Part shown: piece after piece, positions 1 through 15,002 of the stretch
Position numbering within the stretch: the stretch's first letter is position 1
Layout: each line of letters starts with the position of its first letter
Assembly: GCA_016928775.1 (NCBI GenBank)
Contig: JAFGKD010000043.1
Location: 1,834 to 65,833, forward strand
DNA length: 64,000 nucleotides
Direction of reading: 5' to 3'
DNA from: Candidatus Zhuqueibacterota bacterium
GTDB lineage: Bacteria; Zhuqueibacterota; Zhuqueibacteria; Residuimicrobiales; Krinioviventaceae
Program-made: the position numbers and the translations under genes
Notes under the pieces: generated by a model
Database searches by the model: none
What the model saw: the letters and a program-made list of their open reading frames with translations, nothing else
What the model was told of the DNA's origin: nothing

Positions 1-1818
1 AATTTCGTCACTGCCTGGATCAATCGTCAGCAGCGCAATGGAGGCATCGCTGAACGACAGCTCCTGTTTGAGAAGACCGATCCGTTCCGGCGGCAAATCC
101 GGTTTGTCTAACAAATAGGCCATAAGCGTCACGTTGATGTTAACAGCATAGTTTTTAAAATGTATCGTATTGCCCGTCGCATCTTCTATCCACACGTCAA
201 TCTGCAGATTTTCACCTTCTTTACGTTTCGCTTTGAGTGATCCGAGCAGCGTTACTTTGAGATTCGATGTATCCGGTCGAATGAGCTCCGAGCTCTCGAT
301 TAAAAAAGGATCCGAGACAGGACCAACAATAAAGTCATCTGGATTTTCCAGATCCTTTTTCTTGAACTGGAGCTGCGCTTCCGCCACATCCGCCAATCCT
401 GCTATATTAAACACCATGGCATTCAAACGACGCACGGACAAGGGCTGGCCGATGGTTAGCGCGTCAAGGGCCTCCGTGATCCCGGTGAGAAATTCCTGAG
501 ACGCCGCAGCCGGTACTGTGAGATCGGGAATGACATAAAACGTTCCCAGGATAAACACCGTATTAATCACTTCCAAACGCGCCATCACACCGGCGGCGCG
601 GGTTAAATCGACCACTTTGGCGACCTGCTCAGCATCACCACCTGAAAAACGTACCCGAACCTCTCCCAGGGGAATATTTTCACCGGAGTTGAAATCGACA
701 ACCTCAACACCTTCAACACCATCGACATCGAGAACCGCATATTTGATGGCGTTTATTGTTGCATTTCCCGAGCGCTCCAAAGCGTGTTTGGCGCGCTCGC
801 GCAATTGGTCATCCGGTTCGGCACTCTTTCCCTCGCTCGTTGGCTCTTCGTTGACAACACCATCTATACCAATGGGCGGAGTCGGCATGATGACGATGGT
901 CCCGGCGTTCACATTACCTTCCGGGCCGACTTTTTCGGCTTTTATAGCGACTGTCACGCTTTTGGGCTTGTAGCGAATTTGCAGCTCTTCGGTCGGACGC
1001 ACGTCGTCAGCCAGGGTGATGGTGCGTTCATCTTCTCCATAAGGATAATCCGTCTCGGTATCCTTTATATCAAATGGTGTGTCATTTTCGGGATCACCGC
1101 TGCGCAGCCAGATGCCTTCCAGTTCAGCAATTTTATTTTTGACGTTGATGAGTCCATCGAGTTGATAATCAAATTCAATTCGAACGGGTTCTATTTCACC
1201 CGCTTCCGTGGTCACAAAAGATCGATCACTTTCGTCGGTGACGCGAGTTTTTTCTTCAATCAGAACAGATGTCGTGCTAGCCTTTTTGCGGTAGAATGTG
1301 ACGTGCCCGATGGCATGGATATCCGGATTTCTCTCAATTCCCAGTAGCGCAACAACATTATCCAGGGCGACGCCAGTCGCCTGATCGATAAAGGCGCGAC
1401 GATACGCCTGATCCATCTGCTCATAAATTAATTTCATCTCCCGCGAGACCGCGCGAATGAGCGTTCCGACCACACTGCCTGGATTAAAGTCGGTTAATCC
1501 CGCCGGCCGTTCGCGGTAGGTATATTCTACTTCGAGTCTGGTACCTTCATCAGGGAACTCGGTTGGGTGAATCCATATAATGCGATTGTTGCTGAATCGA
1601 TAGTGCGATCCGGCCTGAAACACGGTAAAGTTGGCTCCCATGCGACCGCTGACTTGCAAAATAGCATAGGCTGTTCGCGGCAATTCGTAGGACAGGACAG
1701 AGCTTTTGAATGTAAATCGTGCGCGATCGGGCTGTTCCACGCCGTCCCGAATGCGCTCTTCAAACGCTTCGATCAAATCTTTATATTGTACAGAAAATGG
1801 ATGACCCGGATCGATCAT
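1..1818 (-). CDS. Baseplate J-like (gp6/Afp11-like) protein of the phage-tail-like cluster. 5' partial in this window: the ATG is at 1818 and the gene continues past coordinate 1.
   Basis: The minus-strand frame starting at ATG 1818 (overlapping the upstream gene's stop as ATGA) has no stop codons in the stretches checked (1-360 and the first ~46 codons from the ATG). Translated N-terminus: MIDPGHPFSVQYKDLIEAFEERIRDGVEQPDRARFTFKSS... The plus-strand ORFs here (170-499, 617-973, 784-1347) look like antisense junk. Position immediately after the gp25-like gene matches the W-then-J order of P2 and eCIS baseplates. Family assignment is by synteny, not by motifs. Confidence 0.45.
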   Translation of the reverse strand, partial: MIDPGHPFSVQYKDLIEAFEERIRDGVEQPDRARFTFKSSVLSYELPRTAYAILQVSGRMGANFTVFQAGSHYRFSNNRIIWIHPTEFPDEGTRLEVEYTYRERPAGLTDFNPGSVVGTLIRAVSREMKLIYEQMDQAYRRAFIDQATGVALDNVVALLGIERNPDIHAIGHVTFYRKKASTTSVLIEEKTRVTDESDRSFVTTEAGEIEPVRIEFDYQLDGLINVKNKIAELEGIWLRSGDPENDTPFDIKDTETDYPYGEDERTITLADDVRPTEELQIRYKPKSVTVAIKAEKVGPEGNVNAGTIVIMPTPPIGIDGVVNEEPTSEGKSAEPDDQLRERAKHALERSGNATINAIKYAVLDVDGVEGVEVVDFNSGENIPLGEVRVRFSGGDAEQVAKVVDLTRAAGVMARLEVINTVFILGTFYVIPDLTVPAAASQEFLTGITEALDALTIGQPLSVRRLNAMVFNIAGLADVAEAQLQFKKKDLENPDDFIVGPVSDPFLIESSELIRPDTSNLKVTLLGSLKAKRKEGENLQIDVWIEDATGNTIHFKNYAVNINVTLMAYLLDKPDLPPERIGLLKQELSFSDASIALLTIDPGSDEI

Positions 1819-2243
1819 AGTTCCTCCAGATTCATATCGTAAACCAGGTTTAACGGTGTCGGCTCGTTGATGAGCTGGATGTCCATGCTGAGCCGAACGA
1901 CATCGCGCTCGCCGGGGATAACCCGTGTGCGGACCTCTTTGACCTCCAGCACCCGCGAATCCCCCTCAATCGCGCTACGCGCAAACGCCATAAGCATCAC
2001 GTGCGTGCGATTGTTATTGGGCTGACCGATCAGCTCGTGCAGTCGCGAGCCGTAATTGGGCCAACCGAGGGGCGCCAATTCGCCTTTTCTGATGTGCAGG
2101 CGCAAAATCAATGCCTGGATAATATTGTCGTTGCCGCGCGCCAGATCAATATCGCCGGCCGAGTCCGGGATCAGATCAAATCCCGGGGCGCGCTCGACAA
2201 GCTTGAGGTCGTTGCCGAAAAGTTTTTGACGGTCTGTTGGCAT
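1815..2243 (-). CDS. Baseplate wedge protein, GPW/gp25-like
   Basis: 142 aa. Size and sequence character (…RGNDNIIQALILRLHIRKGELAPLGWPNYGSRLHELIG…) are typical of the gp25/GPW lysozyme-like family. It sits between the PAAR-like and J-like genes, and its stop overlaps the next start (ATGA). Confidence 0.65.
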   Translation of the reverse strand: MPTDRQKLFGNDLKLVERAPGFDLIPDSAGDIDLARGNDNIIQALILRLHIRKGELAPLGWPNYGSRLHELIGQPNNNRTHVMLMAFARSAIEGDSRVLEVKEVRTRVIPGERDVVRLSMDIQLINEPTPLNLVYDMNLEEL

Positions 2244-2288
2244 AATACCATTGATATAAGTTAGCTAATACAATTCATTAAGATTATT

Positions 2289-13024: not shown

Positions 13025-13049
13025 GATGAGTATCTCCTTTATTTAAAAT

Positions 13050-15002
13050 TTATTTGAGTATCATTGTTACTTTGATGTATTCAATGCTGAATGTTGGCTG
13101 TAGTGTCATGGCCACACTCACCTCTCCGGCAATCTCCTGTGCCCGGGTGGCCGACACTTCCAGTTCATAGCCGGTCAGTGATTCGTCCTCAACCATGCGG
13201 GTGAGAAAGGCATCGAGCGTGGCTTTTAGCGCGGCACGAACGCGCACATTATTCAGGCGTCCAAGATAGGGATTGGCAGCCGAACGGACACCGTACTTGG
13301 CGTAATCAACGATACGGCGCGTTGGAACCGCCGAAAACGGTGCGCCTTCTCCTTCTGTTGTCATGCCCTTCAACACTCGGAAACCATTTTTCTGGATAAT
13401 TGACAGGACATTCCGTTTGATCAACTGTTCCTGCTGCCCACGGTTAAAGTCGAGAGAAAGTCCCGGCACGTTCAGCGTTTTGTTCGTCAAACTGGTTTGC
13501 ACCTGCAGCGAAGAGATCAAGCCGGCAACAGCCGCCGCCGTGTAACCCGTAGGTAACGTTCTTCCATCAGGGTATTGAATGGGCGGCGCCACCAGGACAA
13601 CTCGATCATCGGCCATGGTATGGCCCAGAAAATTGGCCAAAGTGCCTCCGGGCGCTCCTAAAACGCCCATACGTTCGTGATCGGTTTGTTCCGTGCTGTT
13701 CAAATGCCCCAACAACGTCGAACCCATGCTCTGAGAATCCTGACCAGCCAAGACAACAATATTGACAAGCTTGTTATCAAGGCTCTCCAGTCCGATGGCA
13801 TATTCATCCGGCCCGGCTTCGGCGCCGTTGCTGCCCGGCGTGTTTGAACCGGTGCCGAAATAAGCATCGACATCCGTTTTGGGCAGATTGCCGCCGTAGG
13901 TTTCATCCGCTTCACAAGTCTCCAGCGTCGAAGCCTGGTTGATCAACTGAGAGAGAATGTTGCCATCCGGTGTGATATATTGCTCAATGATCACGCCAAA
14001 CGTCAAGCTCACTTGTACGCAATTGTCTTTATCGACAAGATACGAGACAACGAGCTTGTCGCCGTTTGCTTGCGCAGGTGCTTCGCCGCTCGCGTAGGCC
14101 AAATCGCCATTCCACACGGTCACCAGGACTTGTCCCGGCTCCAGGGTTTTCGTATATCCAACCGCATAGGTCGCTATAACCGTCTCGCCAGTTACCGGTT
14201 TCTCGCTTGCTTCAAAGGTAATCTCACCTGTCGTCGTGTTTATCCCGATTTCGCCTGCTCCCAAAGGATCGGTTGGATCATACAGGATATCGCCATCACC
14301 ATATTCCCTGATAACCTCTTCTGCGTCATTCACTATTTGAACAAGATCGATGGCCGTTTCTTTTGCAACAGGATAATCCGGGCGAATACTGGCGAGAAAA
14401 AATCGCTCGTCGGTATTCGGCACCACTTCCTCGTTTTCGATAACACGTTTGTAAAGGATATCCATGGTTTGGATACGTTTCGTGGTGCCTCGGAAAATAC
14501 GGATACGATTTTCCAGCGTTGGAACGATTCGTCTGTACTTTAGCGCGTCAAACGACTCGGTATGCGTTTCATCGTTTATGCGACAGTGATCCTCGGCCGC
14601 GGCAACGTCAATGTGGATATTATTTCCCCAGGTGCCGGGTGTTTTTGCAGTCAAGGTCGCAACGGTGTGATCACTGCTATCCAGCAGAGCAAAGGTAGCA
14701 CTTGATTTGCTGGCACCGGCGACTCGAACGGCGAGAACCGTTGAAGCGCCGTTGTTGTAGATGAATTCGAGAGCGCGCACAAGCGTGAGAGGATGGGAGC
14801 CATCTTCCGGACGGTTGTAGTCATCCGGCACACCAAATATTTCCCGGGCATTTGAAAATCCTGCCAACGTGACAGGCGTCCCCACCGGTCCACTGGCCGC
14901 TGTTCCCACGACGCCAACGATACCAGCGGCAATTCGCCCCGCGGATATCAGGCCCTCTGCCCGTACAGTGATGTACGTTCCTGGAACGATCATTTCAGCC
15001 AT
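13050..15002 (-). CDS. Contractile tail sheath protein
   Basis: 650 aa. The N-terminus (MAEMIVPGTYITVRAEGLISAGRIAAGIVGVVGTA) is the conserved sheath start (PGxY…E…). It is the first gene of the minus-strand operon, with an AAGGAG RBS 8 nt upstream and a 735-nt AT-rich intergenic region beyond that. Confidence 0.85.
   Translation of the reverse strand: MAEMIVPGTYITVRAEGLISAGRIAAGIVGVVGTAASGPVGTPVTLAGFSNAREIFGVPDDYNRPEDGSHPLTLVRALEFIYNNGASTVLAVRVAGASKSSATFALLDSSDHTVATLTAKTPGTWGNNIHIDVAAAEDHCRINDETHTESFDALKYRRIVPTLENRIRIFRGTTKRIQTMDILYKRVIENEEVVPNTDERFFLASIRPDYPVAKETAIDLVQIVNDAEEVIREYGDGDILYDPTDPLGAGEIGINTTTGEITFEASEKPVTGETVIATYAVGYTKTLEPGQVLVTVWNGDLAYASGEAPAQANGDKLVVSYLVDKDNCVQVSLTFGVIIEQYITPDGNILSQLINQASTLETCEADETYGGNLPKTDVDAYFGTGSNTPGSNGAEAGPDEYAIGLESLDNKLVNIVVLAGQDSQSMGSTLLGHLNSTEQTDHERMGVLGAPGGTLANFLGHTMADDRVVLVAPPIQYPDGRTLPTGYTAAAVAGLISSLQVQTSLTNKTLNVPGLSLDFNRGQQEQLIKRNVLSIIQKNGFRVLKGMTTEGEGAPFSAVPTRRIVDYAKYGVRSAANPYLGRLNNVRVRAALKATLDAFLTRMVEDESLTGYELEVSATRAQEIAGEVSVAMTLQPTFSIEYIKVTMILK

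Follow-up and report, generated by a model that had tools for sequence, protein, structure and literature searches.

An Rhs core gene in a tightly coupled, head-less contractile tail operon of candidate division KSB1: a probable new tailocin/eCIS-like lineage

The R-type tailocins (P2-like pyocins and their relatives) are stand-alone contractile tails that have close phage relatives and a lysis cassette and carry no cargo. In myoviruses, the head genes are normally located ahead of the sheath gene, and in tails of the Mu type, the genes for the sheath, tube, chaperones, tape measure protein (TMP), hub, spike, gp25, J, I and fibre are contiguous in this order. Rhs proteins with YD-repeat shells are found among T6SS effectors, e.g., the VgrG-Rhs core (8qja) and Tse5 (8cp6), and in the TcB-TcC pair of the Tc toxins. 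Cytoplasmic contractile injection systems (CIS) are documented in Streptomyces and Chloroflexota, and the eCIS (Afp, PVC and AlgoCIS type) are understood here as defined by Geller et al. 2021 (PMC8213781).

The locus described here comes from a metagenome-assembled genome of an uncultured member of candidate division KSB1. In the window, i.e., the entire analysed stretch of 64,000 nucleotides, twelve tightly packed, co-directional ORFs, all intact, run on the minus strand from position 15002 to 1, as originally predicted:

15003..15737, no strand: divergent, AT-rich intergenic region of 735 nt upstream of the sheath gene
13050..15002, minus: tail sheath, 650 aa (RQW00103.1 / EH223_19340; Pfam and PHROG matches); then a 25-nt gap
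12524..13024, minus: tail tube candidate, 166 aa, directly after the sheath gene; then a 14-nt overlap (TTG start of g3) or a 1-nt gap (ATG start, Logan gene call)
12004..12537, minus: g3, 177 aa (172 aa from the ATG start), in the tail-assembly-chaperone position; then a 1-nt overlap
10865..12004, minus: g4, 379 aa, with conserved termini and a disordered middle; then a 3-nt gap
10256..10861, minus: g5, 201 aa, conserved tail/baseplate protein (by conservation); then an 11-nt gap
6852..10244, minus: TMP, 1130 aa, helical (PHROG matches); then a 41-nt gap
4492..6810, minus: Rhs protein, 772 aa (RQW00098.1; HMM, structural model and Foldseek); abutting, with the hub start directly on the Rhs stop codon
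4495..5040, minus: C-terminal domain of the Rhs protein, 182 aa, a hydrophobic helix plus YEHELRH (HExxH), zincin-like in the model
3454..4491, minus: baseplate hub, gpD / gp27 / VgrG-N-like, 345 aa (NCBIfam); then an ATGA overlap
2789..3457, minus: spike, OB-fold gpV / gp5-like, 222 aa (Pfam, VgrG OB segment and PHROG); then a 5-nt gap
2289..2783, minus: g10, candidate spike-tip (PAAR-like) protein, 164 aa (sub-threshold PAAR_motif); then a 45-nt gap
1815..2243, minus: gp25-like sheath initiator / baseplate wedge protein, 142 aa (PHROG, Pfam); then an ATGA overlap
1..1818, minus: baseplate J / gp6-like wedge, 640 aa, 606 aa of which lie inside the window (RQW00094.1; Pfam and PHROG)

Among the junction overlaps originally described, those of the ATGA type are present at the hub/spike and gp25/J junctions, and the 14-nt one exists only with the TTG start. 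The AT-rich region that had been proposed to contain the promoter is real and is a likely candidate promoter region, with a Shine-Dalgarno-like AAAGGAG ahead of the sheath ATG on inspection of 15003..15737; its three sigma-70-like sites are no more than occur in shuffled sequences, so that no promoter is demonstrated. The remaining 49 kb of the window consist of ordinary chromosomal housekeeping genes, and the 15-64 kb portion holds no head, capsid, portal, terminase or integrase genes, as had been stated. The full-length J protein (P0121) is 100% identical to the J of the window. Because the window ends within J, the fibres and other late genes are deduced from orthologues, the closest of which has only 65% identity in J.

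Profile matches were obtained for the sheath, TMP, Rhs, spike, gp25-like and J-like proteins, and only at sub-threshold level for the tube, hub and PAAR-like proteins. The sheath matches Phage_sheath_1 (1e-10), Phage_sheath_1C (1e-13), Gp18_domIII_N and phrog_279, tail sheath (1e-42); its homologues across phyla are 60-68% identical, and among PDB chains it has no relative except for a weak N-terminal match to 9ezm. The TMP matches many tape-measure PHROGs (the best is phrog_305, 6e-26), and its orthologues keep a length near 1106-1167 aa at only 21-54% identity. The spike matches Phage_base_V (3.2e-6), the VgrG OB segment (4.8e-9) and phrog_9992, a baseplate assembly protein; the gp25-like protein matches the baseplate protein phrog_975 (3e-17) and, sub-threshold, Pfam Sheath_initiator (9e-4); and J matches Baseplate_J (8.3e-21) and phrog_6 (7.5e-49). 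The sole match of the tube candidate, which is 77-78% identical to its counterparts in two orthologous clusters (L002 and L029), is to Phage_tube_2 (3.9e-5, sub-threshold). The hub matches NCBIfam VgrG_rel under the curated cut-off (5.5e-15), and its orthologue in L085 weakly matches Phage_GPD. As judged from these matches, the sheath, tube candidate, ruler, gpD-like hub, OB-fold spike, gp25-like protein and J-like wedge all come from one tightly coupled operon.

The small genes are less readily classified. Neither g3 nor g4 has a family match in profile searches; g3 is conserved in position (55-57% identity in L002 and L029), and the positional counterparts of g4 (326-368 aa) share about 60 N-terminal residues and a C-terminal ...LR.YGTSGG motif. 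The g5 protein, with 42-70% identity in about 20 orthologous clusters and a representative in the sister lineage, weakly matches DNA_circ_N, the N-terminus of Mu gp43 (E 0.012), and has no sequence relative in the PDB. The PAAR-like label of g10 comes from one sub-threshold match (PAAR_motif, E 0.033). This protein is 66-68% identical to a cyanobacterial version (in L002 and L084), and in most orthologous clusters its position is occupied by an unrelated pair of proteins of about 140 and 250 aa; judging from these comparisons, g10 is a swappable cassette.

Orthologous clusters, about 30 in number and alike in gene order, are present in Chloroflexota, Actinomycetota, Acidobacteriota, Myxococcota, Pseudomonadota, Cyanobacteria and Armatimonadota, i.e., in seven phyla, and no description of this lineage was found in the literature. 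The order g5-TMP-Rhs-hub-V-(tip)-gp25-J-wedge-fibre-K259 is kept in about 20 loci with complete coverage of these genes. In the 10 kb read after J in orthologues, a gpI-like wedge protein, a protein of about 160 aa, a tail fibre, a small coiled-coil protein, a 259-aa protein and, usually, a giant Peptidase_S8 are encoded, the latter subtilase being located at the cluster end in 19 loci. The fibres match tail-fibre PHROGs and often terminate in a Peptidase_S74 chaperone. Thus, the fibre anticipated beyond coordinate 1 does occur in orthologues, whereas the Afp15-like AAA+ ATPase and Afp16-like cap anticipated with it are missing from these 10 kb. No AAA+ ATPase, DUF4255 or head gene is present in the orthologous clusters, no tail terminator or cap protein was identified in them or in the window, and no lysis gene or release mechanism is visible in or beside the clusters. 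In Kovacikia, the TMP and Rhs genes are relocated jointly as a pair.

No other part of the locus is as unusual as the Rhs gene, which the original prediction simply listed among the others. The protein consists of an N-terminal helix, a YD-repeat shell and a DPNGHW core end (residues 591-596), followed by the C-terminal domain, and matches RHS_repeat (1.7e-34) and Rhs_assc_core (1.9e-13). A Foldseek search started with its AF2 model (pLDDT 89) retrieves T6SS Rhs cores, TcC and teneurin at about 1e-31. There are about 70 orthologues (E < 1e-78, at least 37% identity), after which similarity drops sharply to generic Rhs proteins. In one orthologous cluster (L003), identity to the window is 44% for the TMP, 49% for Rhs and 52% for both hub and J; at the sequence level, Rhs is as conserved as the structural genes and co-evolves with the machine. 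Conservation peaks in the C-terminal domain, with 69% identity as against 41% in the shell and 25% in the N-terminus. Of 44 orthologues, 42 contain HExxH and 43 contain DPxGHW. The domain matches 64 representative clusters in all, mostly within this Rhs lineage, and its fold matches are zinc metallopeptidases, with the T6SS spike effector VgrG2b on top. Long orthologues carry PG_binding_1 and Peptidase_C39_2 extensions behind this domain. No immunity gene follows the Rhs gene. The shell (about 490 residues) is about the size of the TcC half-cocoon and therefore may not close alone.

The resemblance to eCIS lies in a chromosomal, head-less contractile cluster that encodes fibres and an effector besides the sheath, the spike and baseplate proteins of the gp25 and J types, in the HExxH-containing domain, which weakly resembles eCIS_core/DUF4157, and in the variable domains after a linker in long orthologues, the same logic as reported for DUF4157 toxins. 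Unlike in eCIS, no Phage_T4_gp19 tube, DUF4255 terminator or AAA+ ATPase was found in the window or the orthologous clusters, the tape measure precedes the baseplate genes, as in phages, the 650-aa sheath shows no sequence relationship with eCIS sheaths of solved structure, and the effector appears to be Rhs-caged and encoded within the structural operon. The cluster shares with R-type tailocins a stand-alone contractile tail with fibres and a phage-like content including a tape measure, without capsid genes, but differs in having no close phage relative, no visible lysis cassette and Rhs as a core gene. The YD-repeat shell, the conserved core-end motif and the linkage to spike and hub genes recall T6SS Rhs effectors, and the best fold match of the C-terminal domain is the metallopeptidase effector VgrG2b (6h56); here, however, the shell reaches about half of their usual size, and there is no PAAR or VgrG fusion, hypervariable toxin or immunity gene. 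In place of TssBC, ClpV and TssJLM, the machine itself has fibres, a tape measure and a phage-type sheath in one piece. The Rhs model can be superposed on TcC (4igl_B; TM-score 0.61, normalised to the target), with a partial-size shell, an autoproteolytic core end and a C-terminal domain that would be caged, but a TcB or TcA partner is absent here, and injection would be by a contractile tail instead of the TcA syringe. The gene order is the contiguous Mu-type tail order, not the rearranged P2-like one originally proposed, and g5 weakly matches the Mu gp43 N-terminus; in contrast to Mu, head and DNA-related genes are lacking, Rhs is inserted between tape measure and hub, g5 precedes the tape measure instead of following it, and a giant subtilase ends the orthologous clusters. 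Of the earlier assignment to a tailocin, eCIS or T6SS-iv particle rather than a prophage, the stand-alone, head-less tail is supported by the flanks and the phage searches; filing under eCIS or T6SS-iv is not supported, the gp19-type tube, DUF4255 and AAA domains having not been found and the tape measure and fibres speaking against a T6SS. As far as sequence comparison goes, the lineage misses several defining features of eCIS and T6SS and has no close relative among phages or solved structures.

It is scarcely credible that the operon is the tail module of an intact prophage with head, packaging and integration genes past coordinate 1. The window does stop within J, but the 10 kb after J in every orthologue read contain only wedge, fibre, small uncharacterized and S8-protease genes, and the side upstream of the sheath, where myovirus head genes would be expected, is chromosomal here. 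A stand-alone element is much likelier because the orthologous clusters for which this flank was read begin at the sheath gene beside unrelated housekeeping genes. Close relatives of the sheath or J are absent from 50,697 phage genomes, in which the sheath reaches at best 28% identity, over one third of its length (in haloviruses), and J at best 22-24%; the sheath occurs in 3 of 2.9 million IMG/VR contigs. A functionless, decaying remnant of a prophage tail would account for phage-tail homologues without head genes and for the internal deletion in one cluster (L029). This explanation is very improbable, given that the twelve ORFs are intact and tightly coupled, the gene set and order persist across seven phyla at the sheath identity noted above, the ruler length is conserved and the searched phage genomes hold no close relative; these features point to purifying selection on a working machine.

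Two further alternatives concern function. The tail could be a cytoplasmic CIS that, as in Streptomyces, fires inside its producer during stress responses or regulated cell death instead of being released as a weapon, the Rhs C-terminal domain then hitting the producer's own membrane or envelope. This is compatible with the abundance of carriers among filamentous, aggregating and developmentally complex bacteria (Chloroflexota, filamentous cyanobacteria, actinomycetes, myxobacteria, floc-forming Accumulibacter), with the lack of lysis and immunity genes and with a C-terminal domain that does not diversify, but is unlikely in view of the fibres with Peptidase_S74 ends, expected for an external receptor (the Streptomyces CIS is not known to carry fibres), and of a sheath unrelated in sequence to the Streptomyces CIS sheath among PDB chains. 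Alternatively, Rhs might serve the baseplate or tail tip as a structural or assembly component, e.g., as a spike cap or tape-measure partner, with the C-terminal domain as a processing protease in tail maturation. Antibacterial toxins do not typically combine an invariant C-terminal domain with the lack of an immunity gene, a combination that could reflect such a role instead, and the conserved position between TMP and hub, the conservation at structural-gene level and the joint move with TMP in Kovacikia fit as well. We nevertheless regard this as quite unlikely, since all solved Rhs/YD shells matched by the model are toxin or ligand cages, the core end keeps its autoproteolysis motif across orthologues and some of these append peptidoglycan-directed domains. 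Furthermore, in the sister lineage (L036), Rhs is replaced by a membrane protein with a weakly M23-like peptidase end, which suggests an exchangeable effector slot.

The locus is thus probably a chromosomal, head-less contractile phage-tail-like particle, tailocin- or eCIS-like, of a distinct and widely distributed lineage; particle, contraction and toxicity are all inferred from the genes. At about 0.15 nm per residue, the 1130-aa ruler would specify a tail length of roughly 170 nm; the fibres would bind the target cell, and sheath contraction would push tube and spike across the envelope. The Rhs shell, for which the spike tip, the hub and the tape-measure end are candidate positions in the particle, may cage its own 182-aa C-terminal domain, which would be released by cleavage between H and W of the conserved DPNGHW core end and delivered as an effector. 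Bacterial envelopes are the probable target; some orthologues append peptidoglycan-binding or C39-like domains, and the occupant of the sister-lineage slot is weakly M23-like. The locus is best read as representing a new tailocin/eCIS-like lineage that has a putative Rhs-caged effector, the delivery and target of which are predicted, and in this lineage Rhs with its fixed metalloprotease-like end appears as a core gene, not a swappable toxin.

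The tail operon comprises 12 co-directional ORFs on the minus strand, from position 15002 down to 1, which are separated by gaps of 0–45 nt or joined by short overlaps (ATGA overlaps at hub/V and gp25/J, and a 1-nt overlap between the small genes g3 and g4), and the start of the hub gene directly abuts the stop of the Rhs gene. The source is a candidate division KSB1 metagenome-assembled genome, in which the operon lies on an NCBI contig of 196,398 bp and carries the locus tags EH223_19340 to EH223_19285 (proteins RQW00094.1 to RQW00103.1 and MBN1480105.1 to MBN1480116.1), and the J-like gene runs past the window edge, with 606 of 640 aa inside. 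The original prediction of twelve co-directional, tightly packed tail genes is borne out: the ORFs are present, and the sheath, tape measure (TMP), Rhs and J products match the respective families. In the order of transcription, the products, all encoded on the minus strand, are:

Sheath, 650 aa: Phage_sheath_1 (1.1e-10) and Phage_sheath_1C (1e-13), both above the cut-offs; Gp18_domIII_N, above or at the cut-off; phrog_279 (1e-42)
Tube candidate, 166 aa: sub-threshold Phage_tube_2 match, the sole family match
g3: no family match
g4, 10865-12004, 379 aa: no family match
g5: weak match to the Mu gp43 N-terminus (E 0.012)
TMP, 1130 aa, helical: 17 PHROGs matched, mostly tape-measure families, best 6e-26
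Rhs, 772 aa: RHS_repeat (1.7e-34); Rhs_assc_core (1.9e-13) at residues 490-595
Hub, 345 aa: N-terminal part of VgrG_rel (5.5e-15, below the cut-off); one orthologue matches Phage_GPD weakly
Spike (V), 222 aa: Phage_base_V OB domain (3e-6)
g10, 2289-2783, 164 aa: sub-threshold PAAR_motif match (E 0.03)
gp25-like, 142 aa: phrog_975 (3e-17); weak Pfam matches to Sheath_initiator and GPW_gp25
J-like: Baseplate_J (8.3e-21); phrog_6 (7.5e-49)

The matches of the tube candidate, the gpD-like hub and the PAAR-like protein are sub-threshold. The gene order had been taken for a rearranged P2 order; however, the succession of sheath, tube, genes in the chaperone position, TMP, hub, spike, gp25 and J is the contiguous order of Mu-type tails (sheath, tube, chaperones, tape measure, hub, spike, gp25, J). 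Positional counterparts of g4 are found in Kovacikia minuta CCNUW1 (locus L002) and in loci L084, L085 and L086; g4 and these proteins (326-379 aa) retain an N-terminal segment of about 60 aa and a C-terminal ...LE.E.LR.YGTSGG motif that flank a proline/serine-rich, apparently disordered and non-conserved middle part. Profile searches with g5, g10 and K259 (a protein of about 259 aa encoded downstream of J in orthologous clusters) against PDB sequences yielded nothing usable. The sheath gene is preceded by a 735-nt AT-rich divergent intergenic region where the number of sites detected by a sigma-70 pattern scan does not exceed that in shuffled sequence, so that a promoter in this region is an assumption.

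The other 49 kb of the window (15–64 kb), on the sheath side, contain housekeeping and ordinary chromosomal genes, including those for a nitroreductase, an endonuclease/exonuclease/phosphatase-family (Exo_endo_phos) protein, glycoside hydrolases, dehydrogenases and a Cys/Met PLP enzyme. Annotation of this region confirms the predicted lack of head-module genes, with no capsid, portal, terminase or integrase genes among them. The features of note are:

15738-18646, plus strand: TldD/PmbA metalloprotease pair, divergent from the tail operon
20728-24319 (minus), 27977-28918 (minus), 49615-51204 (plus) and 55161-56996 (plus): Por_Secre_tail (type IX secretion cargo) proteins and a PorV-like gene
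40531-44256: fervidolysin-like subtilase gene, 1,241 aa
44367-44732, minus strand: tmRNA gene (Rfam 211.6 bits), tag peptide ADNYNYALAA

The adjacency of the TldD/PmbA pair to the tail operon is probably coincidental; because it is not kept beside orthologous clusters, the pair is not counted as part of the system. The several Por_Secre_tail proteins, together with the PorV-like gene, indicate that this KSB1 organism is probably equipped for type IX secretion of numerous cargo proteins. The tmRNA gene directly adjoins the subtilase gene, and no integrase or island is visible near it.

About 30 orthologous clusters (L003-L033) emerged from a scan in which each species was represented by one genome. 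Sheath homologues number in the hundreds at 60-68% identity, in cyanobacteria, Acidobacteriota and metagenomes, and J homologues are found at 37-65% identity. The clusters are carried by Chloroflexota, Actinomycetota (Solirubrobacteraceae, Rubrobacter, Kutzneria, Actinopolymorpha and Nitriliruptoraceae), Acidobacteriota, Myxococcota (Pyxidicoccus), beta and gamma Pseudomonadota (Accumulibacter, Ideonella, Azohydromonas and Piscinibacter), Cyanobacteria and Armatimonadota (Chthonomonadaceae). Among the carriers are the complete genome of Candidatus Accumulibacter phosphatis (NC_013194) and cultured organisms, namely Kovacikia minuta CCNUW1, Pyxidicoccus caerfyrddinensis CA032A, Ideonella azotifigens JCM 15503, Azohydromonas aeria CFCC 13393, Actinopolymorpha pittospori DSM 45354 and Kutzneria. 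Where the upstream side was read (Kovacikia and two JGI contigs of 1.06 Mb and 157 kb), the cluster starts at the sheath gene right after unrelated housekeeping genes.

A comparison with 50,697 phage genomes detects no close relatives of the sheath or J proteins; the best sheath match, to haloarchaeal myoviruses, shows 28% identity over a third of the protein, and the best J matches, to Felixounavirus-like phages, 22-24%. The sheath is present in 3 of 2.9 million IMG/VR contigs, and the one that was inspected is essentially the tail cluster alone. No solved sheath of similar sequence was found, profile search included, apart from a weak N-terminal match to 9ezm in the PDB. Taken together, the flanks, the conservation and the absence of close phage relatives argue strongly that the locus represents a domesticated, headless tail machine under purifying selection rather than a prophage or a decaying remnant.

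The first half of the conserved gene order runs through g5, TMP (1,106-1,167 aa), Rhs, hub, spike, the tip cassette, gp25 and J. After J come a wedge protein of about 430 aa (phrog_1160, 3.8e-15), a protein of about 160 aa, a tail fibre (PHROG tail-fibre matches, often with a Peptidase_S74 chaperone end), a small coiled-coil protein and the protein of about 259 aa. In 19 loci (L003, 16415-21475; L004-L006, L008, L011-L020, L022, L027, L031 and L032), the cluster is closed by a giant Peptidase_S8 (subtilase) protein of 1,260-1,780 aa, mostly about 1,650-1,710 aa, in which the protease domain spans about residues 280-620 and some 1,000 other residues are without annotation; conceivable roles of this protein are those of a cargo, a regulator or a factor in maturation or release. 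In L083, the closest relative by J (65% identity), the wedge, the protein of about 160 aa, the fibre and small proteins are followed by an S8 fragment at the contig end. Judging from the orthologues, the wedge, the protein of about 160 aa, the fibre and the small proteins should be next beyond coordinate 1 of the KSB1 contig, probably along with a large subtilase. An Afp15-like ATPase and an Afp16-like cap had been expected there; however, this expectation is unsupported given that the orthologues have neither an AAA+ ATPase nor a DUF4255 terminator within 10 kb. Specifically, no AAA+ ATPase is encoded in the window or, for L002, L003, L006 and L083, in the 10 kb that follow J, and DUF4255 is missing from the 12 window products, the scanned downstream proteins of orthologues and the Pfam lists of orthologous clusters. 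Lysis-type genes or Pfam domains were not detected in the clusters either, including the 10 kb after J in orthologues.

The slot between the spike and gp25 is occupied by two unrelated cassettes. One, seen in the window and in two cyanobacterial clusters, is a single protein of 164-168 aa that is 66-68% identical across phyla (g10 at 2289-2783, minus strand, of the window; L002:9056-9562; L084:16498-17004), and the other, found in most other clusters, including L083 (8201-9565), the closest by J, and L003 (8331-9553), is a pair of proteins of about 140 and 250 aa. PAAR_motif matches as weak as that of g10 are produced by its cyanobacterial homologue and by one L003 member of the unrelated slot family. 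This pattern suggests that the spike tip is exchanged as a module. A separate anomaly is seen in L029 (Blastocatellia), where, in the region at about 5683-9006, Rhs and the hub are missing, g5 stops after its first 93 aa and TMP is reduced to its C-terminal half; this seems to be an internal deletion, due either to degeneration of the copy or to faulty assembly.

The TMP assignment could be doubted because in Kovacikia the TMP and Rhs genes form a pair at the far end of the cluster (L002:17235-22022). In this genome and in the related metagenomic contig L084, neither gene is found between g5 and the hub, and the Kovacikia pair is much more divergent (21% identity for TMP and 27% for Rhs, the latter with 1,201 aa). 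The possibility that the 1130-aa protein is not a tape measure was nevertheless rejected, given its canonical position in about 20 loci besides these two, the many tape-measure PHROGs matched, and a length that stays near 1,140 aa in orthologues although identity falls to 21-54%. At about 0.15 nm per residue, the predicted tail would be roughly 170 nm long.

In the AlphaFold2 model of the Rhs protein (53 sequences, mean pLDDT 89), residues 2-40 form an N-terminal helix and residues 41-527 the YD beta-shell; a short helical stretch follows, then the core end with DPNGHW at 591-596, and finally the C-terminal domain, which is made up of a long hydrophobic helix, a small sheet and further helices. 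A Foldseek search started with this model identifies T6SS Rhs cores (8qja, 3e-31), Tse5, teneurin and TcC; for the last (4igl_B), the TM-score normalised to the target is 0.61. In size, the shell corresponds to about half of a T6SS Rhs core and comes near that of a TcC half-cocoon. There are about 70 orthologues (E below 1e-78, 37-58% identity), followed by a sharp fall to generic Rhs proteins at about 26%. Mean identity to 44 orthologues rises from 25% at the N-terminus to 41% in the shell, 63% at the core end and 69% in the C-terminal domain; the putative autoproteolysis motif DPxGHW, where cleavage is predicted, is present in 43 of these proteins and the HExxH-containing motif YEHE[LM]RH in 42. 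Ordinary Rhs proteins combine a conserved shell with a variable toxin, and judging by these alignments, the pattern here is the reverse of that in Rhs polymorphic toxins. Thus, the protein resembles Rhs/YD-repeat polymorphic toxins in its YD shell, its Rhs core with the DPxG motif and a fold that matches Rhs cores, but differs from them in that the C-terminal domain is fixed, being the most conserved part, and that no immunity gene follows; indeed, the hub gene begins right at the Rhs stop codon and leaves no room for one.

When the 182-aa C-terminal domain was searched with HMMER against the full set of 1.84 billion representative proteins, 64 clusters were retrieved, most with the domain at about residues 500-650 of Rhs-sized proteins and the rest mostly fragments or shorter proteins. 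The domain shows weak similarity to eCIS_core (3 of 18 members, best E 0.009) and, in BFVD, to DUF4157 (E 0.37). DUF4157 is an eCIS-specific HExxH domain that precedes variable toxin domains, with long linkers in between (Geller et al., PMC8213781). Some Rhs orthologues share this layout of HExxH domain, linker and variable domains: behind the C-terminal domain and a proline-rich linker, they have an extra 400-800 aa with PG_binding_1 or Peptidase_C39_2 domains. In a sister lineage (Bryobacterales and others; J about 39% identical over part of the protein, TMP about 1,138 aa), there is no Rhs gene between TMP and the hub, as seen in L036 (Bryobacterales) and, with a similar layout, in L040, L043 and L047. 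In L036, the slot (5011-7269) encodes a 752-aa non-Rhs protein with hydrophobic segments and a weakly M23-peptidase-like C-terminus, which suggests that the TMP-hub slot holds envelope-directed proteins.

Comparison with the known classes of contractile systems gives a mixed picture. Of the eCIS core domains listed in PMC8213781, the locus shares with Afp/PVC-type systems the Phage_sheath_1 sheath, the Baseplate_J match and a gp25-like protein (phrog_975), but has no Phage_T4_gp19-type tube (Afp1/Afp5) among the 12 products, where the tube candidate is the sub-threshold Phage_tube_2 protein, and no DUF4255 tail terminator or Afp15-like AAA+ ATPase in the window or the orthologous clusters. As regards the Phage_GPD/VgrG spike and the PAAR tip, the hub and the spike are two genes, with VgrG_rel below the cut-off, Phage_base_V at 3e-6 and PAAR_motif at E 0.03. 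As in R-type tailocins, the contractile tail genes come without head, packaging and integration genes (window 15-64 kb and orthologue flanks), but there is no close phage relative (at best 22-28% identity over part of the protein) and no lysis cassette in the clusters. T6SS have a two-subunit TssB/TssC sheath, Hcp, ClpV and TssJLM, and lack a tape measure and fibres; here, in contrast, there is one 650-aa phage-type sheath, the 1130-aa TMP and fibres in orthologues, and no T6SS family matches in the window products beyond shared VgrG-like segments. The CIS described in the paper on Roseiflexus and Deinococcota belong to a different lineage, kin of Streptomyces CIS. Thus, of the prediction that favoured a tailocin, eCIS or T6SS-iv particle over a prophage, the headless, stand-alone character holds, but each of the named classes falls short: the locus seems to work like a tailocin or an eCIS, but fails several defining features of each known family. 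It is rated as a CIS lineage of its own, in which the Rhs cage belongs to the core. Full-text searches of the literature, coverage of which is incomplete, turned up no phage-tail-like cluster described as having Rhs among its core genes, and an earlier mention is possible.

The set of contractile-tail genes is complete and devoid of head genes, the Rhs gene is co-inherited with the machine, and the core-end and HExxH motifs are conserved. The best explanation, which appears reasonably probable, is a released or target-directed particle with an Rhs-caged effector. Such a particle would assemble on the hub and spike around the ruler; the fibres would bind the target, the sheath would contract, and the C-terminal domain, freed from the shell at the core end, would act on the target membrane or wall. 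A cytoplasmic, self-directed system like the Streptomyces CIS is compatible with the lifestyles of the carriers and with the lack of lysis and immunity genes, but the fibre genes in orthologous clusters speak against it, and it is considered unlikely. Within either delivery model, Rhs could have a structural or maturation role instead of being cargo, for which the odds seem rather poor. A decaying prophage remnant is improbable for a machine that appears to be under purifying selection, and an intact prophage with head genes beyond the window edge is hardly credible, as capsid, portal, terminase and integrase genes and att sites are missing both from the 49 kb on the sheath side and from around the orthologous clusters.

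The reading of a released or target-directed particle can be extended, tentatively, to a new class of CIS in which the Rhs cocoon would be a fixed, stoichiometric part of the particle, mounted on the hub/spike or tethered to TMP. Its payload would be a single conserved domain, membrane-associated and zinc metallopeptidase-like, to which further domains could optionally be appended. The caged-toxin (Rhs/Tc) principle would then be merged with a phage-type tail in a class that spans at least seven phyla and has been missed by eCIS and T6SS searches; this is possible but less than even.

There is active work to mine contractile injection systems and to engineer them for programmable protein delivery, and their natural diversity has been catalogued mainly with Afp/PVC-derived profiles. 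The present lineage fails these profiles, yet has hundreds of metagenomic sheath homologues and is found in cultured strains, and therefore represents an uncharted branch that is directly testable. An Rhs protein that belongs to the core, co-evolves with the machine and keeps its C-terminal domain invariant overturns the usual Rhs rule. If the cage rides on the particle, this would be a new loading route for cargo whose hydrophobicity or size bars it from the tube lumen and, if true, would tie together three toxin-delivery principles, those of phage tails, T6SS Rhs effectors and Tc cocoons.
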